Virus genome (UHGV): UHGV-0268673
Direction: 5' to 3' (one strand)
Length of the DNA stretch: 18,863 nucleotides
DNA from: a virus
Shown here: one piece after another, positions 2,540-18,863 of the stretch
Position numbering within the stretch: position 1 is the stretch's first letter
How the letters are laid out: each line of letters begins with the position of its first letter
Translations under genes and position numbers: made by a program
Notes under the pieces: model-generated
Database searches by the model: none
Told to the model about the DNA's origin: nothing
Seen by the model: only the letters and a program-made list of their open reading frames with translations

Positions 2540-5286
2540 TGCCAGTCGTACCAACAGTATCCGGACGCCAGGCGCAAAGTCGTGGTGTGCAAACCGGTGG
2601 TTTTCAGATCTTCGATGTTCCTCAAGCAGGTCAGGTGCTGGCGAATGTCGCAGATCAGTATGCGGTGGCATATGGTGAAGCCAGGCAGAAAGCGAATGTT
2701 GCTATGGCCCAGGAGGCGTTACTGCAATTTAACCAATTTGCAGATGACCAGATTAACAACCCTGAAAGTGGGCTGATTTCTAAACAGGGTAAAAACGCTC
2801 TTGGTCAGAGTGACGCTGTTATGAAAAATATGCAGGAAAGGGCTCAGGCATTATTAGGCTCAATTCCTGAAAGTGAGGAAAGGAATAAATTATCCTTTCA
2901 ACTCCAGCAGTCTATGCAGTCTTATTACAATCAGGCACGTCGATATGAAGTTGGGCAGTTTCAGCAATTCCAAGATCAAACGTATTTGTCAGGAAATGCA
3001 TTGGCTGTCACTCAGTCTGCGGGGCTATATAGCGATAACCAAGCATTTGTCGATTTAGCCAAGCAGCGATTTGAATCTATTGATCAATACGCTGATGCGC
3101 ATGGGCTTCCTGATGAGTGGCGTGTTCAGCAGAAAACTCAGCTCAAGGAACAAATGGGGCAGCAAGCATGGATAGGAAATATCGCTCAAAAATACAACGA
3201 GTTTCTTCAGGTTAATGGAGAGCCAGGGGATCTTGATGGTGTGAGTCGTGCAATATCACATGGTAATTCATTGGATGCTCGTGGTTTACGTAATAATAAC
3301 CCTGGTAATATTGAAGCGAGCAAATCTAACCCGTGGGAAGGTCAGATCGGTAGCGATGGACGTTTTGCAACGTTTGCTACCCCTGAGCATGGAATCCGCG
3401 CGTTGGGTAAAAATATGTTGTCTTACCAGCGTCAAGGCTATGACACCGTTAGCGAGATTGTTAATCGCTATGCTCCGGCTAGTGATGGTAATAATACTGA
3501 TGCTTATATTAGGGCATTGTGTGGTGAGCTTGGTGTTGGGGAGAATGATCAGCTTGATATCTCTAACCCAAAGACACTAGCTGCTTTATGTGCTGGGATT
3601 ATTAAACACGAAAATGGCAGTATGCCTTATAGCACCGAACAGCTTGAAACTGGTATCTCGGCAGCCCTTGGTCTAACTAACCTTGATTCACCTAAGCGTT
3701 ATACGGGCAATGCGGCATTTGATGCTATGAGCCCTCAAATGCAAATACAGGCATTGAGGCAGGCTAATGAGCTGAGAAATCAGTACCGCCAGCAGTATGC
3801 GGACCAGCTTAGCACCGTAGTTAAAGATGCATATTCAGCCCTTGATGAAGGATTGAAACCTGAGAAGTTACCTTCTGAGGACGATTTTATCCGGGCCAAT
3901 GGTCCGCGCATTGGCGCTATGAAGTGGAAGGATATGCAGGCGCAGATACAATATGGAGGTGTCATTGGTGCCGCTAAAGACCTCACTCCAGAAGGACGAC
4001 AAGACATTCTTGAACGTTTACGTCCACAGGATCCAAACGCTCCTGGATTTGCAGCTAACCAGCAACGCTGGGAGAAAATGCAGGCCAAATTTAAAGAGAT
4101 GGATAGGGAGTGGGAGATTCAGCAGGGAAGAAACAGGTTCGTGTCTTCAATGCAAAATAACTTCCCGCTGGACCCGAACGACAAAAACAATCAGGCAGCG
4201 GTAGACCGTTATTTCGCGCAGGATATCGCGCCTTCGTTTTCCATATCTGATCCGCAGAGCATCAATACACTGGTCACCGTCACAACTAAAAGCGGCATGA
4301 TACCAACTCAGATTAAAACAATGCTTAACAGTGGAGCGACATCAAGAGATCCTGCGCTGGTTGTCCCGATGGCAAAATTCTACGGTCAGTTATTCGATAA
4401 TAATCCGGCGGCAGCGGCAACACTTGATAAAAGTACGATGGCATTTTACGGCAAGGTTTACGATTATTCCCGCGCTGGCGTGCCGGAGGATAAGGCTGTT
4501 GATATGGCTTACAGCCAGGTGTTCCAACAGGATGACCGAATGAAACAGATGCTTTCCACTGCCATGCGAGACAAAAAATATGTCGCGGCGAGGGCAACTG
4601 CTGCACAAAATAACGCCAGCAGTCTGACTTCCTTTGGTTCGTGGTCTCCGGATATTACCGATCCAGGAAAATCAAATGCGGCCTATCAGCGAGATTACCA
4701 GACAATTTACGATGCTAACTTTGTACAGACAGGTGGCGATGCAGAACAGGCTGAGAAAATGACCAATGCCATGATCAGAACCACTTGGGGAGTTTCTACG
4801 GTTAATGGCAAAGCAGAGGTTATGAAGTATGCACCTGAGGCATTGTACGGAGTAAATAATGGTGCTGGTAACTGGATTCAGGGGCAGTGGGAGCAGGAAA
4901 AACGCGAGCTTAAATCAAAATCCTTTGGCGGTCCTCGCAGTGATACGGACTTAATACTTGTTTCTGATAGCCTTACGGCAAGGGATAGGAGTTATGCTGT
5001 TATGGTTTTACAGCCTGACGCAAACGGAGCGATAGAACCGAGAAATTATATTGGAGAAAATGGTCTCCCTGTTCGTTTCAAGCCGGATCAGCTGACATCT
5101 CCAATGTACAGGCAAACCATTCAGTTCCAGCAACAGCGTGTTGATGAGGCTAGAGTGAGGAGAGAAGGCAATCCGCTGCCGCAGTTCAGCAATAAAGATG
5201 GATATACTCCTCCAGATCTGACCAAACCATTCGGTTATGGTTCAGCCAATTACCTTCCGAGCAATATATACGCAGGGGGCAAATAA
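2539..5286 (+). CDS. Large internal virion/ejection protein (915 aa from the ATG at 2539)
   Basis: The ORF track gives 2464..5286, but the ATG at 2539 has a strong GGAGG Shine-Dalgarno 6 nt upstream and overlaps the upstream stop (TAATG), so 2539 is the likelier start. Contains a conserved-looking block (…RGLRNNNPGNIEASKSNPWEGQIGSDGRFATFATPEHGIRALG…). Size and position match T7 gp15-like core proteins. Confidence 0.75.
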   Translation: MPVVPTVSGRQAQSRGVQTGGFQIFDVPQAGQVLANVADQYAVAYGEARQKANVAMAQEALLQFNQFADDQINNPESGLISKQGKNALGQSDAVMKNMQERAQALLGSIPESEERNKLSFQLQQSMQSYYNQARRYEVGQFQQFQDQTYLSGNALAVTQSAGLYSDNQAFVDLAKQRFESIDQYADAHGLPDEWRVQQKTQLKEQMGQQAWIGNIAQKYNEFLQVNGEPGDLDGVSRAISHGNSLDARGLRNNNPGNIEASKSNPWEGQIGSDGRFATFATPEHGIRALGKNMLSYQRQGYDTVSEIVNRYAPASDGNNTDAYIRALCGELGVGENDQLDISNPKTLAALCAGIIKHENGSMPYSTEQLETGISAALGLTNLDSPKRYTGNAAFDAMSPQMQIQALRQANELRNQYRQQYADQLSTVVKDAYSALDEGLKPEKLPSEDDFIRANGPRIGAMKWKDMQAQIQYGGVIGAAKDLTPEGRQDILERLRPQDPNAPGFAANQQRWEKMQAKFKEMDREWEIQQGRNRFVSSMQNNFPLDPNDKNNQAAVDRYFAQDIAPSFSISDPQSINTLVTVTTKSGMIPTQIKTMLNSGATSRDPALVVPMAKFYGQLFDNNPAAAATLDKSTMAFYGKVYDYSRAGVPEDKAVDMAYSQVFQQDDRMKQMLSTAMRDKKYVAARATAAQNNASSLTSFGSWSPDITDPGKSNAAYQRDYQTIYDANFVQTGGDAEQAEKMTNAMIRTTWGVSTVNGKAEVMKYAPEALYGVNNGAGNWIQGQWEQEKRELKSKSFGGPRSDTDLILVSDSLTARDRSYAVMVLQPDANGAIEPRNYIGENGLPVRFKPDQLTSPMYRQTIQFQQQRVDEARVRREGNPLPQFSNKDGYTPPDLTKPFGYGSANYLPSNIYAGGK

Positions 5287-8675: not shown

Positions 8676-9116
8676 CTATTCACAATTAGTGATGGCGTAT
8701 GTATCAAATATATTGCCATCACTAAATACATACCTATACTCAATCTCTCCGCCAAGGTGAATAAATGCTTTCATTTGCCTGTTGGCGCAAATGCTCGATT
8801 TTGAATAATTTCGCATTACACTCTTTAATTTATTTTCTAAGGTTACATCACCATTATAAGCTTTTGATAAATAGCTGTTGTTGTAATTAAGATGCGCTAC
8901 AACTAAAAGTTTGTTTAGTATTGCATTTATTGAAACAATAGACATATTATCATTCAATTTTATGGGAAGTGACTTTCCTGCTTCTGATGCGATTTTGTTT
9001 GCATGAGCACACATATCCTCATTTATTAAATTCTTAAAACATATGTCGTTTGCAAACGAAAAAATTGGTAGGATAAACAAAACGGTGGCTGTAATAGCGT
9101 GCATCGGCTTAATCAT
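8676..9116 (-). CDS. Secreted/periplasmic protein with N-terminal signal peptide and four Cys (146 aa), unknown function; AT-rich cargo gene
   Basis: N-terminus MIKPMHAITATVLFILPIFSFA↓ND looks like a Sec signal peptide. Strongly AT-rich codon usage compared with the flanking virion genes. Its stop abuts the stop of the convergent upstream gene (TAGCTA at 8673-8678). Confidence 0.55.
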   Translation of the reverse strand: MIKPMHAITATVLFILPIFSFANDICFKNLINEDMCAHANKIASEAGKSLPIKLNDNMSIVSINAILNKLLVVAHLNYNNSYLSKAYNGDVTLENKLKSVMRNYSKSSICANRQMKAFIHLGGEIEYRYVFSDGNIFDTYAITNCE

Positions 9117-9128
9117 TAGGTGACCTTT

Positions 9129-9578
9129 ATGTTCAAGAAGATGATCAACAGATTAATCGGTGGTAAGGAGGTTAGCAATAAAATTCAACCTCTTATCTTT
9201 AAGGATAACTTTTCAGCTTTTGAGTATGCGTGTAAGTATCTTGACACAAGCCTTTCAGCCAATAAACCAATGCCAGCCATCATCATACCTGGTCCCAGTG
9301 GGGAACAGCCAGTTTTGCTAGATTCTGGAAGACAAAGGGCAATGCTGAAGGTGTGCTCAGCTGATGGTGGATTTTTTGTTATTGCCGATTCATCTTACAG
9401 CAAAGGACCAAAGCTGAGGATTGGTGATCTTGTTGCTTGGTTGCCTGTGAGTTATGCCGAAGAATTAACGGATAAAATAGAAGATCCTCGCTCCGCTATG
9501 GTTGGCTTTATATTGGGAACCATTCATCCTGAACTAACATCTACTGGCTGGAAGGGTAAAGAAAGATTTCGCAAGTAG
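9129..9578 (+). CDS. Hypothetical cytoplasmic protein (149 aa from the ATG at 9129)
   Basis: The ORF track starts it at GTG 9120; the ATG at 9129 has an AGGTGA Shine-Dalgarno 7 nt upstream. Followed by a clear intrinsic terminator. Starts head-to-head about 12 bp from the start of the minus-strand gene. Confidence 0.5.
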   Translation: MFKKMINRLIGGKEVSNKIQPLIFKDNFSAFEYACKYLDTSLSANKPMPAIIIPGPSGEQPVLLDSGRQRAMLKVCSADGGFFVIADSSYSKGPKLRIGDLVAWLPVSYAEELTDKIEDPRSAMVGFILGTIHPELTSTGWKGKERFRK

Positions 9579-9591
9579 CGTGACATGTCAC

Positions 9592-9616
9592 AGGCCGCGA
9601 AAGCGGCCTTGTTTTT
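9592..9616 (+). terminator. Rho-independent terminator for the 9129..9578 gene
   Basis: Stem AGGCCGC / GCGGCCT with GAAA loop, followed by TGTTTTT. Confidence 0.6.
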
Positions 9617-9693
9617 AACGAATGCCACTGCCGCCCGGGCGGGAATCCACAGAACGCCCACCGCAGCGGGAGCCGTCAGCGGCAGTATCGCTG

Positions 9694-10014
9694 TTATACT
9701 ATTGAGTTAAATGATATCTTGTCCTTAATATCATTAAGTTTGCCATGTATCTTTTTTGCATAAGAATCAGCTTCCTCAATAAACTTCGACTTCTCATTAT
9801 CAGGCATATTTTTGAAGGTATGTGCACATGTATATTGAGAGTAGTAATTGTGAAACTTGTTATACAAATTATTGAGTTCTTGTAAGTCTTTTTTATACTC
9901 AGGAAGGTATATGTTTATTAGCATTTCCATCGTTTGCAACGGATTGACTTTTGATGTGTCAAATTTACTACCAGAGTGGTAACTGGCATTGTTAACAAAA
10001 TTGAGAATAGCCAT
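9694..10014 (-). CDS. Hypothetical protein (106 aa), very AT-rich; last gene of the minus-strand cargo cluster
   Basis: Uninterrupted ORF in a roughly 30% GC stretch (judged by eye). Weak ribosome-binding site, so confidence is only moderate. Same orientation and spacing as the upstream membrane-protein genes. Confidence 0.45.
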   Translation of the reverse strand: MAILNFVNNASYHSGSKFDTSKVNPLQTMEMLINIYLPEYKKDLQELNNLYNKFHNYYSQYTCAHTFKNMPDNEKSKFIEEADSYAKKIHGKLNDIKDKISFNSIV

Positions 10015-10079
10015 TTCGCTTGAAGCTATGGCTTTTTCAGTAAGTATGCAATTTGTGAATAATTGCTCACGTTTATCTC

Positions 10080-10196
10080 TTAATATTTTTCGCGCTCTAA
10101 TTTTATGCTGTTTTTGTATCCTTGCCTTGCACTTATGTAAGTAGAAACTATAGCAATAACTGCACCTATCAATGCTCCTAAGATAGTATTATCCAT
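10080..10196 (-). CDS. Small single-pass membrane peptide (38 aa: MDNTILGALIGAVIAIVSTYISARQGYKNSIKLEREKY), absent from the ORF track
   Basis: Hand translation of the minus strand. ATG at 10196 is preceded by AGGTGG with a 5-nt spacer; TAA stop at 10082-10080. Hydrophobic core GALIGAVIAIV. Sits between the 287-aa membrane-protein gene and the 106-aa gene. Confidence 0.45.
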   Translation of the reverse strand: MDNTILGALIGAVIAIVSTYISARQGYKNSIKLEREKY

Positions 10197-10221
10197 ATAA
10201 GCCACCTAAACTGCGTAAAAA

Positions 10222-11085
10222 TTATTTCCTGCCACTTCTGTAGTATATGTTGCGACCATTTTTGGTCACATTAACAACATGACCCTTTGTTTCTACTTTG
10301 TTATTTGTTGCCTTATATACTTCAAAGTCAAACCATGATATATGACTTATTTCGTCTATAGATACCATAATTTCTAGACCTTGAACTTTCTTTTTGCTTA
10401 TCCCTTTTATCGCAGCACTGCGCTTAATTTGGATTTCACCTGGGTAAGCGTTTGTAAATGTAACAGATAAATTTTCTTTGTTTCTGTACCCTGACATTAA
10501 AGGAACAAAAGATATGTGTTGGTGTGGCCCTTGATTTTCCGTTGGCTCACCAGAACCATTTATTATTCCAACGTATACTTTATTTGATGATAAAGTAATT
10601 AACATTGGTTTCTTAGGATCTGATTCGATTGCATCAAGCAATAGCAAATCTAAAGAACCCTGGGAGTACGTTTTTCGCAATACTCTAGCTTTCATTGCCT
10701 CTGATATTTTGTCATAAATATCACGTTTATAAAAAAAACCTAAAAGAAGATCTTTTAGCCAAACAAAAGATACATAACACAAAGAGAAGCAAATTGATGT
10801 GACTGACAGAAGAAGTAGCCACATGTAAATTCTATCTGTTTCTGGTTTTGACGTTACATTAAAAGTTTCCACCATATCGTGAACTAGGTGAAAATCAGGA
10901 TATTTATATTTTATAAATGCGGCAATTATTACTGAAGCAACAAGGCAATATGTACCTAATGCAGCTACTTTCATATAAAGAAGCTGGCCTTCATGTCGGT
11001 ATAAACGGAAATAATGATACTGGTTAGCGGTTATCATAATATAACCACTAACCAGAATGGGGATAATTAGAAGAGCTAACAACAC
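10222..11085 (-). CDS. Inner-membrane protein with three predicted N-terminal TM helices and a roughly 175-aa soluble C-terminal domain (287 aa); candidate exclusion/defence/conversion effector
   Basis: GTG start at 11085 overlaps the TAG of the upstream 69-aa gene (TAGTG) and has an AAGGAAA Shine-Dalgarno. Hydrophobic stretches at about residues 2-20, 38-60 and 86-110. AT-rich. I recognise no family. Confidence 0.7.
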   Translation of the reverse strand: MLLALLIIPILVSGYIMITANQYHYFRLYRHEGQLLYMKVAALGTYCLVASVIIAAFIKYKYPDFHLVHDMVETFNVTSKPETDRIYMWLLLLSVTSICFSLCYVSFVWLKDLLLGFFYKRDIYDKISEAMKARVLRKTYSQGSLDLLLLDAIESDPKKPMLITLSSNKVYVGIINGSGEPTENQGPHQHISFVPLMSGYRNKENLSVTFTNAYPGEIQIKRSAAIKGISKKKVQGLEIMVSIDEISHISWFDFEVYKATNNKVETKGHVVNVTKNGRNIYYRSGRK

Positions 11086-11294
11086 TATTTCCTTACAGTG
11101 GCAAGATCCTGTTTAACGATTGCAGCAGCGAGACGACGCATCTCCTTAACCTCAGGAAGCTCAGAAATTTGCTGTGATGAGATATACACTCCACCACGCT
11201 TGTTAACCTGCGCTGACGCCGGAACTTCTGCATTTTTTGCCTGAGGGCTGGGTGCATTATCCCTCGTTTTTGTACGAGCGAACCAAAATCCCAT
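11085..11294 (-). CDS. Small basic protein (69 aa), possible regulator; first gene of the operon driven by P1/O1
   Basis: Strong GAGGAGGAG Shine-Dalgarno 4 nt upstream of the ATG at 11294. Promoter-like TTGCAG-17 nt-TACTAT sits upstream with the palindromic operator O1 immediately after the -10. Translationally coupled to the 287-aa membrane-protein gene. Confidence 0.6.
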   Translation of the reverse strand: MGFWFARTKTRDNAPSPQAKNAEVPASAQVNKRGGVYISSQQISELPEVKEMRRLAAAIVKQDLATVRK

Positions 11295-11320
11295 ATCTCC
11301 TCCTCATGTAAACACATGGT

Positions 11321-11335
11321 TTACCTTTAAGGTAA
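11321..11335 (-). promoter_or_regulatory. Operator-like palindrome O1 (TTACCT-TTA-AGGTAA) overlapping the -10/+1 region of the promoter for the 69-aa/membrane-protein operon
   Basis: Perfect 6-bp inverted repeat with 3-bp spacer. On the minus strand the order is -35 TTGCAG, 17-nt spacer, -10 TACTAT, operator. One of three copies of the same palindrome in the island. Confidence 0.5.
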
Positions 11336-11406
11336 TAGTACGCTATTCACCCCCAGTCTGCAATCTGTACAGAATTATTTAAAGGCACGTCCCTGTGCCG
11401 CCGCCG

Positions 11407-12102
11407 TCAGAAGAACCCTGCTTTGTCGTTGATGTACTCCGCGTGCGTCTGGATATCACGCAGGCATTTGCTCACACCGACGATGTAGCAGAACATGGTG
11501 GTCAACTCCGCCGCCGCGCCCGATACGTCATGCCCGTCTTCCTGTAACTGGTTCAGCAGATTCATCAGCAGTGAGTTCTCCGTCAGGCCGAGAACACCAG
11601 ACGGAGAATGAATCAGGCTGCGGTAGCCTGGCTTCAGTGGGGCGCTGTAGGTTTTGTTCTCTATCTTCATCGCCTGCATCACTGCTGATGCTGTGGCGTT
11701 TGCAACCTGGTCGGCAACCATCTTTATGCGTTCTTCCTGCGGGAGCGAGTTTTTAATGTAACTTCCGGTGCGGCGGATCTGAGGAAGAACCTCACCTGTA
11801 ACCCATTTACGAAAGCGGTAGGGGATAGTGCCTGGTGTCACTGCGTCGCGGCAGCGGAGGATCAGTGTGTAGAGGCCTGACTCGGAGATGATGATCGATT
11901 CTTGCTCACCGCCAGGGGTGTCGGTTGAAGCGACGCCCTTCTCATCATCATCAAGTTTTCGAACAGCATCTCGATGGTTTGCTATGCCTATAGCCCGACA
12001 AACATCTGAAGCGATAAACCATGGCTCACCATTAATGACGATTACCCGTATATCGGCTTGGGATTCGAAAGAAAAAATGGACGTGCTTTTTGTAGCTGTC
12101 AT
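11407..12102 (-). CDS. Phage anti-repressor-like protein with an N-terminal Bro-N domain (231 aa)
   Basis: N-terminal region IRVIVINGEPWFIASDVCRAIGI…DEKGV…GGEQESIIISESGLYTLILRCRDA…FRKWVTGEVLPQIRRTGSY matches the Bro-N/AntA-type pattern. AAGGTAA Shine-Dalgarno upstream of the ATG at 12102. C-terminal ~65 aa is paralogous to the 85-aa protein at 12418..12675. Confidence 0.8.
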   Translation of the reverse strand: MTATKSTSIFSFESQADIRVIVINGEPWFIASDVCRAIGIANHRDAVRKLDDDEKGVASTDTPGGEQESIIISESGLYTLILRCRDAVTPGTIPYRFRKWVTGEVLPQIRRTGSYIKNSLPQEERIKMVADQVANATASAVMQAMKIENKTYSAPLKPGYRSLIHSPSGVLGLTENSLLMNLLNQLQEDGHDVSGAAAELTTMFCYIVGVSKCLRDIQTHAEYINDKAGFF

Positions 12103-12259
12103 AGTGGTTACCTTTTAGTCTGGTTAATCACCACTACCGACGCCAATCGGTTGGTGGTGAACTGTGCAGGGTTGGCGTAACCGGCTAAAAGGACCCGGCG
12201 CACCTTTCGGTGCCCCCACACAGCCCACCATAATACGAATGTGGCCGTGCTATACGCAT

Positions 12260-12279
12260 AAAAAAACCGCTTGCGCGGT
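12260..12279 (-). terminator. Rho-independent terminator on the minus strand, between the 85-aa gene and the anti-repressor-like gene
   Basis: Minus-strand read: ACCGC-GCAA-GCGGT hairpin (GNRA-like loop) followed by six T (plus-strand A-run 12260-12265). Confidence 0.5.
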
Positions 12280-12371
12280 GAATGCGCCTTTTAGTAATCC
12301 GGGACGCCAATCCCGGCACTGGATTTTGCCAGTGCCCGATTACTATGGCACAAGAGGAGTGCGATGTAAAT

Positions 12372-12386
12372 TTACCTCAAAGGTAA
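12372..12386 (-). promoter_or_regulatory. Operator-like palindrome O2 (TTACCT-CAA-AGGTAA, extended ATTTACCT…AGGTAAAT) with associated promoter-like elements
   Basis: Minus strand shows -35 TTGCAA (plus 12409-12414), 16-17-nt spacer, -10 TTATAT/TATATT, then the operator at the putative +1. Same architecture as P1/O1. Confidence 0.5.
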
Positions 12387-12417
12387 ATATAAGCACTCCA
12401 CTTGGTAATTGCAAACC

Positions 12418-12675
12418 TTATCTGGTTTGTTTTCGTAATTGTTCGGCACAATAGTCGAGATGTGTTTGCAGATCCTGCATAGACATCTGTGAGCTGGTGA
12501 CGTAGTTAATCAGTGCAGTCAGTTCGGCAAGTGGGCCATCGACATTAAATCCATCCTTATCGAGATCCCGGAGTAATTTCATCAAGTGCGATCCCTCCAC
12601 CAGTGACCTGACGCCTCCCGGCGTGTGAATCCTTTCGGTAAATCCGTCTTCCAGTGGATAGTGATACTGCTGCAT
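12418..12675 (-). CDS. Small protein (85 aa from the ATG at 12675) homologous to the C-terminal domain of the adjacent Bro-N anti-repressor-like protein; candidate SOS-inducible anti-repressor-type regulator
   Basis: The ORF track starts at TTG 12693; the ATG at 12675 has a GGAGA Shine-Dalgarno 7 nt upstream. Roughly 40-45% identity by eye over about 64 aa to residues ~165-228 of the 231-aa protein (e.g. LMKLLRDLDKDGFNVDGPLAELTAL vs LMNLLNQLQEDGHDVSGAAAELTTM). LexA box and O3 lie upstream. Confidence 0.65.
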   Translation of the reverse strand: MQQYHYPLEDGFTERIHTPGGVRSLVEGSHLMKLLRDLDKDGFNVDGPLAELTALINYVTSSQMSMQDLQTHLDYCAEQLRKQTR

Positions 12676-12694
12676 CTTATCTTCTCCATGCAAT

Positions 12695-12714
12695 AACTGT
12701 ATATTTATACAGTA
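12695..12714. promoter_or_regulatory. LexA (SOS) box: AACTGTATATTTATACAGTA
   Basis: CTGT-N8-ACAG with an AT-rich spacer, about 18/20 match to the E. coli LexA consensus TACTGTATATATATACAGTA. Lies between the promoter region and the ribosome-binding site of the 85-aa gene and overlaps a TATAAAT -10-like element on the minus strand. Confidence 0.6.
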
Positions 12715-12751
12715 TCAAATAATTTGTTTGCTATCCAGCACGTTTTGCAAA

Positions 12752-12766
12752 TTACCTGAAAGGTAA
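12752..12766. promoter_or_regulatory. Operator-like palindrome O3 (TTACCT-GAA-AGGTAA, extended ATTACCT…AGGTAAT), flanked by the self-complementary TTGCAA hexamer
   Basis: Third copy of the palindrome, in the divergent intergenic region between the 85-aa gene (minus) and the tailspike gene (plus). Could serve a promoter in either direction. An extra AGGTAAT half-site lies at 12811-12817. Confidence 0.5.
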
Positions 12767-12870
12767 TATCTATTCGTATTTACAGCCTTTCTATCCATAT
12801 GTGGTTTTTCAGGTAATAAAATAACCAGATATGCGGCGCAACGGGTGCTGCGACTATCTGGAGATTTAAC

Positions 12871-15447
12871 ATGACGGTCTCAACCGAAGTTGACCACAAC
12901 GAATACACTGGTAACGGCGTTACGACATCATTTCCGTATACCTTCCGTATTTTCAAAAAATCCGACCTGGTTGTTCAGGTGTCTGACCTTAACGGTAACG
13001 TAACAGAACTAGTACTGGATACCGGTTATACGGTAACTGGGGCGGGCACTTATAGTGGCGGTTCTGTTGTTCTTCCGTCGCCGCTTGCTGCTGGATGGCG
13101 AATTACGATAGATCGTGTGCTTGATGTAGTGCAGGAGACAGACCTTCGCAATCAGGGAAAATTTTTCCCCGAAGTGCATGAAGATGCCTTTGACTACCTG
13201 ACGATGCTGATCCAGCAATGTTTTGGGTGGTTCAGACGTGCATTGATGAAACCATCTTTGCTTGCAAAATATTACGATGCAAAGCAAAACAGAATTTCTA
13301 ACCTTGCAGATCCATCATTTGAGCAGGACGCTGTAAATAATCGCTCAATGCGTAATTATGTTGATGCTGCAATCGCCGGGGTTGTTGGTGGTTTTGGTTG
13401 GTTTATTCAGTATGGTTCTGGAGCAGTATACCGAACGTTCCAGGATAAGATGAGAGATATCGTCAGTGTTAGCGATTTTGGTGCAAAGGGAGATGGAATA
13501 ACTGATTCTACGGAGGCGTTCTCTAATGCAGGCCACAGAGCGTTTGTTCCTAATGGCGATTTTGCAGTAAATACTCTCGAAGTTGATGTATCTTCTGTTC
13601 AAGGTATTGGGAGGATTGTTGCTGATAATGGATCTCTTATTTCAGTTTCTCGTCTACTTGAAACTGACAAACTTGTGCAGAGAAAAATGATGGAACCTTT
13701 TTTTGGTTTTCAGGGAGAAACAAACACAGAAATTTATCCTAATGCCAGAAATGCGTTACAGGGGATCGCATATTGCCGTGTTAATGGCATTGAAAAACTA
13801 TTTGTCACACAACGGCCTGTTGGGCCAACCTGGTCAGATAAAGAAAGAGTTCGTATTGTTGAGTTTAATCTTTATGATGATGGAAGGGTAGTAAACCATG
13901 TTGCGTATTCTCCAGAATTAAACCTTGGGCACGGATTTGATCTTTCTGCCATGGTGGAGAATGGTCAAGTATATTTATATACATCAAGTGTAACCAATTC
14001 AGGTGAAGATGGGGAGTCTGCAGGCAAAGGGTTTAGTAAAATAACTTGGCGAGGGGCAGGAACAACTCAGTCTGACGTAAAAAGTTATAATGTATGGGGG
14101 ATTACTGGTAGCGGTCACCCATTTCAAGATTACAATCGTGCAGGAATTGCCATTTCTTCTGACGGTCGTCTTTTAATAATGGTTAATACACCAAAGAGTG
14201 ATGCCGCTAAACGAACTGTATTTATATACGATAAAATATCAATTGATAAACTTGAAGATAAAACATTAGCAAACCCCATGTTTGTTTGGGAAATGAGCGA
14301 CTCACCTTCTGAAGGCGCTTACTCTGTACAAGGTATTGCGTCTGATGGAAGATATATACATATACTTAAGGGAGGGACTAACGCTTTTGGAAAGCATCAT
14401 ATCTTTACATATGATTTAACAGGTAATTTACTAAGAAAATTAGATATCGATGATGCAAGGTCGCAATATGGGCGCGATGGGTTGCTTAACCATCCAACTC
14501 TTGGGAATCCAGCCAGATTTGAGCCGGAAGGTCTAACTATTCGTGGTGAAGAAATAATTATAAGCTGCATAGAAACATGGAGGGCAGGAGCTAATATTGT
14601 AAACTGGCGTGGAAGAAGATGGGCTGCATCATCCATTGAGACTTCTGGAATAATTGGTGTCCCTCCATCAAATGGCTCTTATTGGGTAGAAACAACCAAG
14701 GATGCAAATTCTGGAGATTGGAGTCCTGAAACAGATTATGGATGGGGAAGTAGCTATTCTCTTGAGAAAAAGACAATTTACTCTATACGACCAGCGACTG
14801 GTAACAACGATGAGCAGAACCTTAATTCTGGCATAACCAATGCTTCAAGTAATGCAGGTGCAGATGCCGGAGAAAGCGGGCGAAATATATCATTTAGATG
14901 GCGCAATGCTTTTAATATTGTTGCATTTAGCGAACGTCTTGGTGAGTACTTCAAAGCTATTATGTATGATAATAGCTCAAGATTAAGAATATACGATCAG
15001 CAAAACGGTAGTGATAACACTGTTTATGGCTCAATCCAGGCACTATTTACGTCATCATTTAAGGGATTGATTTTAAGGGGTAGGGGGGTATCAGCATCAA
15101 ATAGTTCCTATATTAGGTTACATTCATCTGATGATCCAAACTACCCAAATTCGATCATTGAAGGAACAAGAACAGATGGAAGTTTTTCCAGGGAAACAGA
15201 TTCAAACGGAACCACTACATTTGCATCGGACTCAGAGCACGAACCGTTGCGTATCAGAAGGGCTTCAGATGGTTTGTTGTTTGCATACGAGAAAGTAAGA
15301 GGTACAACTCTCTTTGGAATTTATAGAGGCTCCGGTTCACCTGAGGGTGTTGTGACCGCACCTCAGGGGTCAATGTACATTGATTATAATGGTGATTGGT
15401 ATCAAAAGAAAACAGGAACAGGAAATACAGGATGGGTGTTAAAATAG
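12871..15447 (+). CDS. Tailspike/tail fibre protein (858 aa) with T7 gp17-like N-terminal virion-attachment domain and a large C-terminal receptor-binding/enzymatic region
   Basis: GGAG Shine-Dalgarno 7 nt upstream. The N-terminal ~120 aa (…YTGNGVTTSFPYTFRIFKKSDLVVQV…ITIDRVLDVVQETDLRNQGKFFPEVHEDAFDYLTMLIQQ) follows the conserved pattern of the T7 tail-fibre N-terminal domain. Long Gly/Ser/Thr/Asn-rich remainder is typical of tailspikes. Confidence 0.85.
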   Translation: MTVSTEVDHNEYTGNGVTTSFPYTFRIFKKSDLVVQVSDLNGNVTELVLDTGYTVTGAGTYSGGSVVLPSPLAAGWRITIDRVLDVVQETDLRNQGKFFPEVHEDAFDYLTMLIQQCFGWFRRALMKPSLLAKYYDAKQNRISNLADPSFEQDAVNNRSMRNYVDAAIAGVVGGFGWFIQYGSGAVYRTFQDKMRDIVSVSDFGAKGDGITDSTEAFSNAGHRAFVPNGDFAVNTLEVDVSSVQGIGRIVADNGSLISVSRLLETDKLVQRKMMEPFFGFQGETNTEIYPNARNALQGIAYCRVNGIEKLFVTQRPVGPTWSDKERVRIVEFNLYDDGRVVNHVAYSPELNLGHGFDLSAMVENGQVYLYTSSVTNSGEDGESAGKGFSKITWRGAGTTQSDVKSYNVWGITGSGHPFQDYNRAGIAISSDGRLLIMVNTPKSDAAKRTVFIYDKISIDKLEDKTLANPMFVWEMSDSPSEGAYSVQGIASDGRYIHILKGGTNAFGKHHIFTYDLTGNLLRKLDIDDARSQYGRDGLLNHPTLGNPARFEPEGLTIRGEEIIISCIETWRAGANIVNWRGRRWAASSIETSGIIGVPPSNGSYWVETTKDANSGDWSPETDYGWGSSYSLEKKTIYSIRPATGNNDEQNLNSGITNASSNAGADAGESGRNISFRWRNAFNIVAFSERLGEYFKAIMYDNSSRLRIYDQQNGSDNTVYGSIQALFTSSFKGLILRGRGVSASNSSYIRLHSSDDPNYPNSIIEGTRTDGSFSRETDSNGTTTFASDSEHEPLRIRRASDGLLFAYEKVRGTTLFGIYRGSGSPEGVVTAPQGSMYIDYNGDWYQKKTGTGNTGWVLK

Positions 15448-15526
15448 ACTATTCTATTTTAATTTTTCCCATTAATTAATGATGGGAATCCCAAAAATTG
15501 ATAATACATCATCTATTTATAACTCA

Positions 15527-15552
15527 GCCACCTCATAGTGAGGTGGTCTTTT
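15527..15552 (+). terminator. Rho-independent terminator downstream of the tailspike gene (a second weaker hairpin follows at about 15569-15589)
   Basis: Stem CCACCTCA / TGAGGTGG with TAG loop followed by TCTTTT. Second hairpin CCACC-TTG-GGTGG followed by GCTTTT. Confidence 0.6.
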
Positions 15553-15703
15553 ACTGTTATCCCTAAATCACCACCTTGGGTGGGCTTTTACCAATACCAA
15601 TGACAGTATTTTTGCTGTAAGAAAGTAACAATAAACCATAAATGGTTTATTATGCTTTGTGACTTACCATTTAGGATGTTGATGCATATAAACGGTGGAA
15701 AAC

Positions 15704-17501: not shown

Positions 17502-17651
17502 CATGGCATTTTTCATGGTACTGATTTCCGGTGACGGTATATAAAACGGTACGGTGAAAATCATGTTGCAGGAAGTTGTTATCAGTCAATTGGTTATGGT
17601 ATCCGTAAATAATTGAGTGGGAATGATTTGAACCCTGCACTATGAATGAAC

Positions 17652-17719: not shown

Positions 17720-18259
17720 TTAGTTAAACCAGCTGTCCGATTTGTTCTCTTCTGCTTTGCCCACGCTTTTCATCAGATCGCGACCGCCTTCAGTCATATT
17801 TCTGTTTGCGTCAGCTTCAGATTGCACCACATCGGTTTGCGCAGCTTTGTGCTTCAGTTCCTGATCGATAAATTCGTTTTCGCGCTTGACGCGGGCTTCT
17901 TCTTTCGCCAGCGCCAGTTTTTGTTTCTGAATCTCTAAGCTGCGTAGCTCATCTTCATAACTTTGATCGCGTTTTTTGTCCGCAGTGGCTTCGGCGTCCA
18001 GTTTATCCTGACGAGCTTTCTTATTCGCCGCTGCCGTTGCCGCTCTTTTATTAGCCGCGGCCTGGGCGTTTGCGCGACGTTGCTTCTCTTGCTGGATTTC
18101 CCTGTTGCGCTCCGCGACCCATTCGTCATGCTGCCTTTGCTCTTCATTTTTACCTTGCTGTTCCGCTTCTGCGACAGCCGAGAGTTGATCCTGCAATGAT
18201 GAGGCGATAGCCGGATAGCTTAAGGAGGCTAAGATGGCGCAAAGAAAAACTTTCTTCAT
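17720..18259 (-). CDS. Secreted, highly charged coiled-coil protein (179 aa), unknown function
   Basis: N-terminal signal peptide (MKKVFLCAILASLSYPAIA↓SS) and an E/K/Q/A-rich heptad-like body. GGAGGA Shine-Dalgarno upstream. Sits 15 bp downstream of the lipoprotein gene, so the two are probably co-transcribed. Confidence 0.6.
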   Translation of the reverse strand: MKKVFLCAILASLSYPAIASSLQDQLSAVAEAEQQGKNEEQRQHDEWVAERNREIQQEKQRRANAQAAANKRAATAAANKKARQDKLDAEATADKKRDQSYEDELRSLEIQKQKLALAKEEARVKRENEFIDQELKHKAAQTDVVQSEADANRNMTEGGRDLMKSVGKAEENKSDSWFN

Positions 18260-18274
18260 GACTCCTCCTGATCA

Positions 18275-18790
18275 TTAGCTCTTTTCAGGACATTTCGTAT
18301 TTGGCTGAATACGCGTTTCGTTATACGTCGTGGTAATAACAACGGCTAAACCTGTCGTAAACTGGCACTCTTTACCCACCTGGGTGGAGGTATACACTTT
18401 GGTGCCTTCCTTATACGTTAGAGAAACACCTTCCACTAAGGTTTTATCATTCACCATAGAACCCGCTGCCGCGCCAACAGCTCCGCCGCCAACTGCACCT
18501 GCCGTCGTTCCGGAATTGCTGCCAGACCCCACGTTGTGGCCGATTACACCGCCAGCGACTGCACCAATAAGCGCGCCGAAGGCTTGTGCGTTCCGTTTAT
18601 TTTGGGAGTTGTCTACGGCAACTTTTGCGGGAAGAATGGAAATAATATTAACGGTTTTAGTTTCTTGTTTGGTATTCAGTTGATCGGTTTGATAAACATC
18701 GGCGGCATGATCATCAGCATTTGACTGGCATCCTGCCAGAGTGAATGACGCTAACATTGCCACAGGCAGAAGACATTTTTTAAATTTCAT
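18275..18790 (-). CDS. Lipoprotein with a glycine-zipper segment (171 aa from the ATG at 18790), outer-membrane/envelope type
   Basis: Lipobox FTLAGC after a basic N-region. Gly-zipper motif GALIGAVAGGVIGHNVG…GAVGGGAVGAAAG typical of SlyB/YcfJ-like small envelope lipoproteins. AAGGAA Shine-Dalgarno 5 nt upstream of the ATG (the ORF track starts at GTG 18793). Confidence 0.65.
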   Translation of the reverse strand: MKFKKCLLPVAMLASFTLAGCQSNADDHAADVYQTDQLNTKQETKTVNIISILPAKVAVDNSQNKRNAQAFGALIGAVAGGVIGHNVGSGSNSGTTAGAVGGGAVGAAAGSMVNDKTLVEGVSLTYKEGTKVYTSTQVGKECQFTTGLAVVITTTYNETRIQPNTKCPEKS

Positions 18791-18863
18791 CACTATTCCT
18801 TGTTATACACATTACGAAAAATAAGACATTTAAGATCATCAAAAGAGGAAAGTAAATGTATTG

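Follow-up and report, generated by a model that had tools for sequence, protein, structure and literature searches.

Three palindromes in the anti-repressor region of a Uetakevirus prophage are predicted operators of the main immunity repressor Rep

The stretch of DNA analysed here (18,863 nucleotides of UHGV virus genome UHGV-0268673, referred to as the window) comes from a Uetakevirus (epsilon15/phiV10/SPC32H-like) prophage integrated at guaA, of which it forms the right arm. The region of interest contains two anti-repressor genes, ant1 and ant2, two RNA genes upstream of ant2, a slot for accessory (cargo) genes and the tailspike gene (Table 1). An earlier note on this DNA had likened the region to immI of phage P22, and it is indeed an immI-like anti-repressor region adjoining the tailspike gene. 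The C-terminal part of Ant2 (residues 150-223) shares 42% identity with the small Ant of 86 aa (E=8e-16). Searches of Pfam, PHROG and PADLOC returned no function for the cargo proteins. Related islands were matched in 1018 of 5426 complete E. coli genomes.

Table 1. Features of the region and their positions in the window
Feature	Position	Strand	Basis or remark
orf287, second cargo gene	10222..11085	-	PHROG 3630, function unknown; start overlaps orf69 stop
orf69, first cargo gene after P1/O1	11085..11294	-	PHROG 5739, function unknown
O1, predicted Rep operator, TTACCTTTAAGGTAA	11321..11335		perfect match; overlaps P1 -10 and start region
P1 promoter	11335..11363	-	TTGCAG (11363..11358), 17-nt spacer, TACTAT (11340..11335); read directly from the sequence
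ant2, 231-aa anti-repressor	11407..12102	-	N-terminal Bro-N (Pfam E=2.3e-21); PHROG 130 'anti-repressor Ant'
ant2 Shine-Dalgarno region CUAAAAGG, target of C4 loop CCUUUUAG	12111..12118	-	8-nt perfect complementarity
C4-type antisense RNA	12150..12235	-	Rfam RF01695, 77.7 bits (gathering score 45)
isrK sRNA	12260..12335	-	Rfam RF01394, 77.9 bits (gathering score 50)
O2, predicted Rep operator, TTACCTCAAAGGTAA	12372..12386		perfect match; last base of P2 -10 to about +8
P2 promoter, driving isrK-C4-ant2	12386..12414	-	TTGCAA-17-TATATT; consensus scan
ant1, 86-aa small anti-repressor, SPC32H Ant homologue	12418..12678	-	PDB 5D50 chain E 'Anti-repressor protein', E=3.5e-47
LexA box upstream of ant1, CTGTATATTTATACAG	12697..12712		single window match, 0.05 expected
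O3, predicted Rep operator, TTACCTGAAAGGTAA	12752..12766		perfect match; divergent ant1/tailspike intergenic region
Late-promoter-like box, CATATGTGGTT-N4-AGGTAATAAAAT...AACCAGATATG	12796..12833	+	upstream of tailspike gene
Tailspike gene, other O3-flanking gene	12871..15447	+	

The palindrome TTACCTNNNAGGTAA (TTACCT-N3-AGGTAA) has exactly three perfect matches in the window, O1, O2 and O3. In 200 dinucleotide-preserving shuffles of the window the expected number was 0.01 and no shuffle reached three; the three perfect copies described earlier are confirmed. Single hexamers were not enriched (15 observed, about 9 expected). The 6-bp arms are perfect in all three copies, but the invariant core of the operator, in a consensus built from 67 sites, is only 5+5 bp (TTACC-N5-GGTAA) and position 6 varies: it is T in about 65% of the E. 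coli-lineage sites, whereas sites of the Salmonella and Klebsiella lineages have either A or T there. All three window sites fit the Uetakevirus palindrome (A)TTACC-N5-GGTAA(T) perfectly.

This palindrome is spread over the whole phage genome. TTACC-N5-GGTAA was the top-ranked palindrome in each of seven complete relatives, with 8-11 perfect copies per genome, and about 15 sites per relative were found when up to two mismatches were allowed, against about one expected. In the sibling prophage, 13 of the 15 sites are intergenic, though about 88% of the DNA is coding, and the 39.45-kb prophage has 10 perfect cores while 160.8 kb of host DNA has none. In the complete relatives, three sites fall in the gap that separates the repressor gene from the cro-like gene and two are at the early-left promoter (PL), and the motif also occupies five or more further conserved intergenic slots. 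The rep/cro and early-left placement was read in relatives (the sibling prophage, phiV10, TL-2011b, Tyrion, epsilon15, SPC32H and BUCT711); the window stops short of that region. PL and the promoter preceding DUF1064 are built like P1/O1 and P2/O2, in that their proximal operator starts with the final T of the -10 hexamer; both also have a further operator, exactly 62 bp upstream, a spacing found 13 times in the seven genomes. The epsilon15 GenBank record labels these palindromes (ATTACC-N5-GGTAAT) 'protein_bind: repressor', although the labels may be predictions. The earlier note had suggested a small regulon and asked whether the motif is restricted to the island; instead, about 15 sites extend over whole phage genomes, the rep/cro region included. 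The genome-wide occurrence that the note had named as refuting its reading was found in the prophage, not in the host (no perfect core in 161 kb).

The position of O1 directly after a minus-strand -35/-10 pair (TTGCAG-17-TACTAT) was confirmed by reading the sequence, with the limit that P1 scores below the threshold of the consensus promoter scan. At P1/O1 and at P2/O2 alike, hexamer and operator share one base, the T that ends the -10 and opens the operator. Both P1 and O1 are kept in 61 of 80 relatives, and the O1 half-sites are 98% conserved compared with 64% for the flanks (27 distinct relatives). Downstream of O1, the relatives carry at least eight unrelated leaders or interchangeable cargo modules. 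We propose that P1 drives an exchangeable accessory-gene slot, which holds orf69 and orf287 here and other cargo elsewhere.

For O2, the consensus scan itself found the minus-strand promoter that had been noted just upstream (TTGCAA-17-TATATT, 12414..12386). O2 was found in 74 of 80 relatives, and its half-sites are 99.5% conserved against 0.855 for the flanks (40 distinct relatives). The -35/-10 region upstream of O2 exists in at least three unrelated versions, with the half-sites unchanged, and O2 is also kept in a Klebsiella Uetake-like relative. Stx phage PA28, which has a homologous isrK-C4-ant module and a different repressor, has no operator there. The half-sites of O1 and O2 outlast complete replacement of the adjoining promoter or cargo sequence.

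The operon behind P2 begins with isrK, which has an intrinsic terminator (12279..12266 plus a U run, terminator scan) and whose transcript carries the same CUAAAAGG 8-mer as the ant2 Shine-Dalgarno region. Besides the loop contact with that region, a second stretch of the ant2 leader, UUGGCGU (12140-12146), pairs with ACGCCAA in C4. The C4:ant2-leader duplex has a predicted energy of -41 kcal/mol, equalled or beaten by 2% of shuffled leaders. Only 47 nt separate C4 from ant2, and there is no ORF between them. The stretch at 12108-12116, previously listed as a single operator half-site, is instead this Shine-Dalgarno region, the target of the C4 loop. Overexpression of the ant2 orthologue of phage ZX5 has been reported to decrease lysogeny about 1000-fold (PMC9782041).

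O3 is present in six of six aligned phages and in 78 of 78 relatives. Its slot corresponds to feature 19895-19911 of the epsilon15 record, again labeled 'protein_bind: repressor'. The start of ant is 84 bp away from O3 and that of the tailspike gene 112 bp, as is also the case in epsilon15, SPC32H and BUCT711. The TTGCAA hexamer said to flank O3 is indeed present (12745-12750). O3 lies about 65 bp upstream of both divergent promoters. Because it overlaps neither core promoter, repression from O3 is not explicable by simple occlusion. Sequence inspection found no degenerate partner operator 62 bp to either side and no convincing sigma-70 promoter with O3 in its spacer, and the promoter scan found none there. 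O3 is probably an auxiliary or looping site rather than a direct occluder, and we infer the direction of regulation there. On the ant1 side, the LexA box is conserved in phages of four host genera; Kim and Ryu reportedly showed in 2013 that it overlaps the ant promoter.

On the tailspike side, the late-promoter-like box follows a Rep operator before the structural operon, the tailspike gene and the lysis cassette (phiV10, SPC32H), and the late-box block is invariant across genera. The AGGTAAT at 12811-12817, also counted earlier as a half-site, belongs to this CATATGTGGTT-N-GGTAATA box, which recurs upstream of three late operons. We also considered an everted repeat in the late box (GGTAA-N5-TAACC) and dropped it since it is not conserved at other late boxes. 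Upstream of the lysis genes in the window the late box is kept and the operator is absent, so operators are not obligatory at late promoters.

It is very likely that O1, O2 and O3 are operators of Rep, the main immunity repressor of Uetakevirus (epsilon15/phiV10/SPC32H-type) prophages, judging from the sequence comparisons. Rep carries an HTH domain at its N-terminus and a tetramerisation domain at its C-terminus, with a dimerisation domain between them; it lacks an autocleavage domain. Since rep lies outside the window, about 16 kb past its left end, we infer the cognate Rep from siblings. In the collections searched, the closest sibling prophage (97.3% identical to the window) encodes a full-length homologue of SPC32H Rep (5D50_A, E=4e-42); that homologue and phiV10 gp40 are 100% identical. 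According to published work, the SPC32H protein is a tetramer when it binds its palindromic sites, and tetrameric Ant splits it (PMC9638917; PMC9986798). In phage ZX5, the repressor is reported to be identical in sequence to phiV10 gp40, and its overexpression cut lysis-gene mRNA by 99.97-99.99% (PMC9782041). Within the N-terminal domain of Rep, the stretch NLVNRW is invariant despite 43% overall identity, matching the invariant operator core. Because all seven Uetakeviruses, from four host genera, share one core, this amounts to co-conservation of repressor and operator and not to covariation. By this evidence Rep would physically bind O1, O2 and O3. Since the three sites are three of about 13-15 copies of the Rep site, the switch is of a known kind and not a private island regulon. 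What stands of the original operator proposal is that the palindromes are very likely sites of a multimeric repressor and that O1 and O2 overlap sigma-70-type promoters; the private small regulon does not stand.

Three other readings were weighed against operators of Rep. The cro-like early protein (76 aa, gp41 homologue) might be the key binder, shutting the anti-repressor and cargo promoters in lytic growth, with Rep in a secondary role. In its favour, the protein hits PHROG 35 'transcriptional repressor' (E=5.6e-13), its HTH weakly resembles the Rep N-terminal domain (27% identity), and in classical switches Cro and CI use common operators. However, it does not conserve NLVNRW, the stretch in the recognition helix of Rep, and its binding would be compatible with binding of Rep, not exclusive of it. 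The cro-like protein may bind the same sites, but we consider it unlikely to be the key binder.

A private regulon run by a small dimeric repressor encoded in the island, such as the 69-aa protein, in the manner of Mnt/Arc, appears very improbable. Autoregulation would be plausible with O1 at the promoter of orf69, and a single-sequence AF2 model of the protein (a short hairpin followed by two helices) is compatible with a small DNA-binding fold, though at a pTM of 0.35 the model is too weak for a fold search. On the other hand, whole phage genomes contain about 15 copies of the motif, the rep/cro region included, and epsilon15, SPC32H, Tyrion and BUCT711 have it without orf69. Among 80 relatives, orf69 was found in only 5-7, compared with 61 for O1 and at least 74 for O2 and O3. 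Because it is missing from most relatives that carry the motif, the 69-aa protein is not the general binder. It has no Pfam, PDB or annotated PHROG match, and no DNA-binding family was detected in it. The distribution of the motif and of orf69 largely refutes the private regulon.

The least probable reading takes the palindromes chiefly for joints of recombination or boundaries of modules, or for weak hairpins. It draws on sequence relatedness stopping exactly at the O1 edge (cargo swaps) and the O2 edge (promoter swaps). Against it, the palindrome keeps its position relative to the -10 even after promoter replacement, the motif also occurs at rep/cro and at PL with the exact 62-bp pairing, and a stem of 5-6 bp closed by a loop of 3-5 nt would make too weak a terminator. 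Homologous exchange is moreover expected to leave breakpoints at conserved operators as a by-product.

The Rep operators proposed here are further instances of an operator type that is already known, and the closest known case is the Rep-Ant-LexA system of epsilon15 and SPC32H. These phages share with the window the palindrome, the O3 slot that separates ant (gp19) from the tail fibre gene, homologous small Ant (5D50_E, E=3.5e-47) and Rep (5D50_A, in the sibling), and the LexA box upstream of ant. They differ in having neither an isrK-C4-ant2 operon nor a P1 cargo slot, and therefore O1 and O2 have no counterpart in them. In addition, the E. coli-lineage sites favour T at position 6.

Phage P1 is a closer analogy than P22. 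Phages P1 and P7 have dispersed C1 operators plus immI, in which a C1-controlled promoter drives the c4 antisense RNA and ant. In both P1/P7 and the present prophage, primary-repressor operators are scattered over the genome, one of them gating the promoter of a C4-family RNA (RF01695) and an anti-repressor, and the C4 loops are complementary to the downstream ant ribosome-binding region. The C1 operator of P1 is asymmetric and unrelated in sequence to TTACC-N5-GGTAA, and P1 immI has the coupling ORF icd. The island has no icd-like ORF between C4 and ant2, and C4 targets the ant2 Shine-Dalgarno sequence directly; Rep is of the SPC32H type, unrelated to C1, and the phage is an integrating podovirus. 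Since it has no icd-like ORF and its repressor is not of the C1 type, the island works like P1 immI without being a member of that group.

The likeness to P22 immI stood in part. The anti-repressor region lies just upstream of the tailspike gene and the anti-repressor is kept silent, so position and general logic agree. In contrast, the operator sequence differs, no island protein has a Pfam match to Arc, Mnt or RHH proteins, and the operators belong to the genome-wide set of the main repressor, not to a local circuit confined to the island. The order isrK with terminator, C4-like RNA and Bro-N anti-repressor is also found in Gifsy-1, whose isrK - STnc1160 - orf45 - anrP locus has isrK with a leaky terminator, an IsrK-complementary C4/CI-like RNA and a Bro-N-type anti-repressor (PMC4825925). 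Unlike Gifsy-1, the window has no orf45, and a Uetakevirus Rep operator is present at the promoter, which is absent from the Stx-phage module.

If Rep occupies these operators, the following circuit can be proposed. In the lysogen, Rep at O1 and O2 would cover the -10 and start regions of two sigma-70 promoters, and O3 would be one of those operators that lie upstream and come as a pair with a late-promoter-like box. Upon DNA damage, LexA would leave the ant1 promoter, and Ant1 would then break Rep tetramers and release Rep from O2 and O1. P2 would now transcribe the second anti-repressor operon, with ant2 translation still gated by C4 pairing at the ribosome-binding site, and the cargo genes behind P1 would be switched on. 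Ant2 may have a feed-forward role.

A more extended version of this scheme, in which an undescribed two-stage commitment circuit is joined to P1/O1 as a standard Rep-gated cargo 'socket', is put forward tentatively, as a possibility that we hold somewhat less likely than its opposite. The LexA-gated small Ant would act first, and loss of Rep at O2 would unlock the RNA-gated Ant2, a Bro-N protein whose Ant-like part would serve as a Rep-binding domain. C4 would block the ant2 ribosome-binding site, and isrK would serve as a decoy. The combined effect would be positive feedback on Rep inactivation. At the P1/O1 socket, unrelated cargo genes would be exchanged by recombination at the operator. 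If this is true, socket cargo would be silent in the lysogen, where classical morons are expressed, and would come on only with infection or induction.

The principle of dispersed operators for a repressor that is inactivated by an anti-repressor is already known from epsilon15/SPC32H and P1. The present analysis corrects the idea of a private island regulon and names a specific regulator for three promoters in a type of E. coli prophage that is very common. In this picture, the master repressor would directly control both the second anti-repressor and the variable slot for accessory genes. The phiV10-like phages convert O-antigens and serve as O157 reporter phages. For their induction, the assignment yields testable predictions on how SOS-dependent and SOS-independent inputs (LexA, Rep, C4 and isrK) may be combined.

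The DNA of the window comes from an epsilon15/phiV10-like podovirus prophage (genus Uetakevirus), of which it forms the right arm, with plus-strand tail and internal-virion genes, a minus-strand island, the tailspike gene, lysis genes, attR and the host genes yfgI/yfgH in that order. ATTGAGTGGGAATGATT is also the attachment-site core of ZX5, phiV10 and epsilon15 (PMC9782041). In the island, the anti-repressor gene ant1 encodes an 86-aa protein closely homologous to Ant, the SPC32H anti-repressor of known crystal structure (PDB 5D50 chain E, E=3.5e-47), and ant2 encodes a 231-aa Bro-N protein (Pfam E=2.3e-21) whose last 75 residues share 42% identity with the small Ant (E=8e-16). The two genes behind O1, orf69 and orf287, encode 69-aa and 287-aa proteins of unknown function. 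Two minus-strand ORFs of 41 and 106 aa (9694-10205) are the halves of one 170-aa gene, which is intact in relatives such as L007 and frameshifted here after ...KLEREK.

A pattern search of the whole 18.9-kb window found perfect TTACCTNNNAGGTAA at O1, O2 and O3 only. Dinucleotide-preserving shuffles gave a mean of 0.01 matches and never reached three, which confirmed the three perfect palindromes described in the earlier note. The promoter-like hexamers described with them were also present, at the minus-strand promoters P1 (at O1) and P2 (at O2). At both, the palindrome's first T is the last T of the -10 hexamer, and this junction is the classical layout for repression by occluding the -10 and start region. 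Only 3 nt separate the stop codon of ant1 (12418) from the P2 -35 hexamer (12414..12409), with no terminator between; ant1 transcription freed from LexA could run into isrK-C4-ant2, with O2-bound Rep, the main immunity repressor, as a possible roadblock. The ant promoter of SPC32H is under LexA control, as Kim and Ryu reportedly found in 2013.

Features of the window and of related Uetakevirus genomes
Feature	Position	Strand	Remark
Island	8676-12693	minus	
O1	11321-11335		perfect TTACCTNNNAGGTAA match
P1	11363..11335	minus	TTGCAG-17-TACTAT; read off the sequence
C4 antisense RNA	12150-12235	minus	Rfam, 77.7 bits; between O2 and ant2
isrK	12260-12335	minus	Rfam, 77.9 bits; between O2 and ant2
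O2	12372-12386		perfect TTACCTNNNAGGTAA match
P2	12414..12386	minus	TTGCAA-17-TATATT; from consensus scan
LexA box CTGTATATTTATACAG	12697-12712		precedes ant1
O3	12752-12766		perfect TTACCTNNNAGGTAA match; ant1/tailspike gap
Late-promoter-like box	12796-12833		phiV10 about 3300-3340, 20920-20960, 24760-24790; SPC32H equivalents
Tailspike gene	12871-15447		
Palindromic late-box version AACCATAAATGGTT	15634-15647		kept upstream of lysis genes
attR core ATTGAGTGGGAATGATT	17612-17628		perfect copy; prophage right end
Host genes yfgI, yfgH	17720-18793		beyond attR
Operator pairs at early promoters	L003 10330/10392 and 13435/13497		equivalents in six other genomes
Operator slot			three sites; between repressor gene and divergent cro-like gene
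Operator slot			two or three sites; early-left promoter, just downstream of repressor gene
Operator slot			one site; after cro-like gene
Operator slot			two sites; before DUF1064 gene
Operator slot			one site each; upstream of terS, structural operon, lysis cassette, int
Operator slot			one site (= O3); between ant and tailspike gene

When all X5-N5-rc(X5) and related palindromes were counted without bias in seven Uetakevirus genomes (hosts E. coli, Salmonella, Enterobacter and Klebsiella), TTACC-N5-GGTAA came top in every one, at 8-11 perfect copies per genome. The perfect core was absent from 160.8 kb of host chromosome, against 10 copies in the 39.45-kb prophage. The complete genomes of phiV10 and TL-2011b each held 15 sites at up to two mismatches, where about one was expected. 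In L003, the closest available sibling prophage (97.3% identity over the island, and integrated at guaA as in the window), 13 of 15 sites were intergenic in a genome with about 88% coding DNA. The motif is genome-wide in this phage type, and the small regulon that the earlier note had proposed is not supported. The 67 perfect-core sites gave the consensus (A)TTACC(T/A)-N-[A/T]-N-(A/T)GGTAA(T), with an A/T central base pair in 98%. The invariant core is 5 bp, and the 6-bp arm read from the window is its E. coli-lineage form. In TL-2011b (31060-32244 and 34153-35241) the island holds an extra P22-like pair of Arc-like repressor and Ant; in addition, DNA inserted between ant1 and the promoter of isrK brings a further perfect operator, at 34478. 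The same extra operator, about 93 bp from O2, is seen in several IMG/VR relatives.

The palindromes are very probably operators of Rep. In the epsilon15 GenBank record, features labelled 'protein_bind: repressor, lysogeny' mark these very palindromes; one, at 19895-19911, falls in the gap that separates gp19 (ant) from the tail fibre gene, the slot of O3. The 194-aa repressor of L003 is homologous over its full length to SPC32H Rep (PDB 5D50 chain A, E=4e-42), which binds palindromic DNA as a tetramer and is split by tetrameric Ant (PMC9638917); its domains serve DNA binding (N-terminal), dimerisation (middle) and tetramerisation and Ant binding (C-terminal, of the DNA-looping type) (PMC9986798). 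Among seven phages Rep identity falls to 43%, yet NLVNRW in the N-terminal HTH domain is invariant, in step with the invariant operator core. In the seven-phage alignment Rep (L003 10464-11048) has two HTH-like regions, at residues about 20-61 (YdaS/Cro-like) and 104-148 (HTH_3); the latter is what the SPC32H structure calls the 'middle dimerisation domain', and NLVNRW is kept only in the former. The ZX5 island is 98.7% identical to the window's. The ZX5 repressor is reported to be identical in sequence to phiV10 gp40, its overexpression lowered holin and endolysin mRNA by 99.97-99.99%, and with the ZX5 Bro-N anti-repressor overexpressed, lysogens dropped from 1e9 to 1e6; operators are not defined in that paper (PMC9782041). 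The operator type is already known, from the epsilon15 annotation and the solved SPC32H Rep/Ant system, and the slot of O3 has been annotated before. New are its occurrences as O1, at a cargo socket, and as O2, at a second, RNA-gated anti-repressor operon; we found no description of either. The cro-like protein matches PHROG 35 and bears weak similarity to the HTH domain of Rep; it too may bind these sites, which would be compatible with binding by Rep.

At two L003 promoters, the early-left one (TTGACA-16-TAATTA) and the one before the DUF1064 gene (TTGATT-17-TTTAAT), the final T of the -10 is also the first base of an operator, and there is another operator exactly 62 bp upstream of it. Thirteen pairs with 62-bp centre-to-centre spacing occurred in the seven genomes, and one more at 63 bp; rep/cro region spacings were 17-18 bp plus 30 or 48 bp. 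This spacing suggests cooperative or looped binding by tetrameric Rep. P1/O1 and P2/O2 have the same -10/operator junction without the 62-bp partner.

The ant1 promoter region, which the LexA box overlaps, and a -10-like TAAAAT on the tailspike strand are each about 65 bp downstream of O3, which overlaps neither. When the regions upstream of the structural operon, tailspike gene and lysis cassette of phiV10 and SPC32H were aligned, a late-promoter-like box, CATATnTGGTT-N6-7-GGTAATA or TATAAT, was found 29-41 bp downstream of a Rep operator. It is often part of an inverted repeat AACCA...TGGTT, and at the tailspike the block does not vary among phages of four host genera. The AGGTAAT at 12811-12817, previously taken for a single half-site, belongs to this box, which may be the target of a gp49/gp55-type regulator (PHROG 536). 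O3 thus resembles an auxiliary operator upstream of a late-type promoter, in a region that ant1 shares. In front of the lysis genes (15447-15695) the window has no Rep operator, unlike phiV10, epsilon15 and SPC32H at this slot, a loss apparently tied to replacement of the tailspike module. L003 likewise has no operator there.

Conservation was compared in 80 IMG/VR contigs encoding an identical or nearly identical small Ant. O2-isrK-C4-ant2 was present in at least 70 and the O1 region in 61, and orf69/orf287 in only 5-7. O2 half-sites were 99.5% conserved, and the region just upstream had at least three unrelated versions, all keeping the -35, the -10 and the operator junction. At O1, P1 was conserved, and conservation was 98% for half-sites, 70% for the spacer and 64% for the flanks; right after the operator at least eight unrelated leaders/gene sets alternated, with no Pfam matches for the cargo sets. 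P1/O1 (11295-11363) thus looks like a Rep-gated socket for accessory genes, with recombination breakpoints at the operator edge. One such set precedes a YafO toxin gene in TL-2011b. A purely recombinational role for the palindromes would leave the fixed -10 junction and the rep/cro sites unexplained. The way motif and gene are distributed contradicts an island-private repressor such as the orf69 product, and this protein has no DNA-binding signature (AF2 single-sequence model, pLDDT 71, pTM 0.35). Equivalents of O2 and O3 are retained in a Klebsiella Uetake-like phage, while the homologous isrK-C4-ant module of Stx phage PA28 stands in a lambdoid background, where 3.2 kb of sequence contain no such operator. 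The presence of the operator therefore follows the Uetakevirus repressor background rather than the RNA/ant module.

Downstream of O2 there is an RNA layer. The inner-hairpin loop of C4, CCUUUUAG, is a perfect complement of CUAAAAGG at the Shine-Dalgarno region of ant2 (plus-strand 12111-12118), and ACGCCAA in C4 makes a second contact with UUGGCGU in the leader. The duplex has an energy of -41 kcal/mol, which 2% of shuffled leaders reach or beat. What had been read as a half-site, TTACCTTTT, is thus the ant2 ribosome-binding site and C4 target. Since the CUAAAAGG 8-mer is repeated in isrK, in its single-stranded part, IsrK could titrate C4 as a decoy. This 8-mer and the ant2 Shine-Dalgarno, both complementary to the C4 loop, match the a1/b1-a2/b2 layout of phage P1. 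As in phage P1 immI, a promoter under the primary repressor is followed by a C4 RNA and ant; because it has neither an icd-like ORF nor a C1-type repressor, the O2 operon is not a member of that family. The isrK/C4 complementarity also matches that in Gifsy-1, where IsrK shows complementarity to STnc1160, the C4/CI-like RNA downstream of it, and activates translation of the AnrP anti-repressor (PMC4825925).

The motif statistics, the distribution and geometry of the sites, the homologies and the RNA pairing are demonstrated here, and Rep binding, the way in which O3 acts and the feedback through Ant2 are inferred. We propose that in the lysogen Rep tetramers on O1 and O2 would block P1 and P2, LexA would block the ant1 promoter, and Rep on O3 would add to ant1/tailspike silencing, perhaps via looping. 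Upon SOS induction Ant1 would be made and would dismantle Rep, and P2 would then fire. IsrK and C4 would set the threshold for ant2 translation, and Ant2, via its Ant-like C-terminal domain, would reinforce Rep inactivation, while P1 would turn on the resident cargo.
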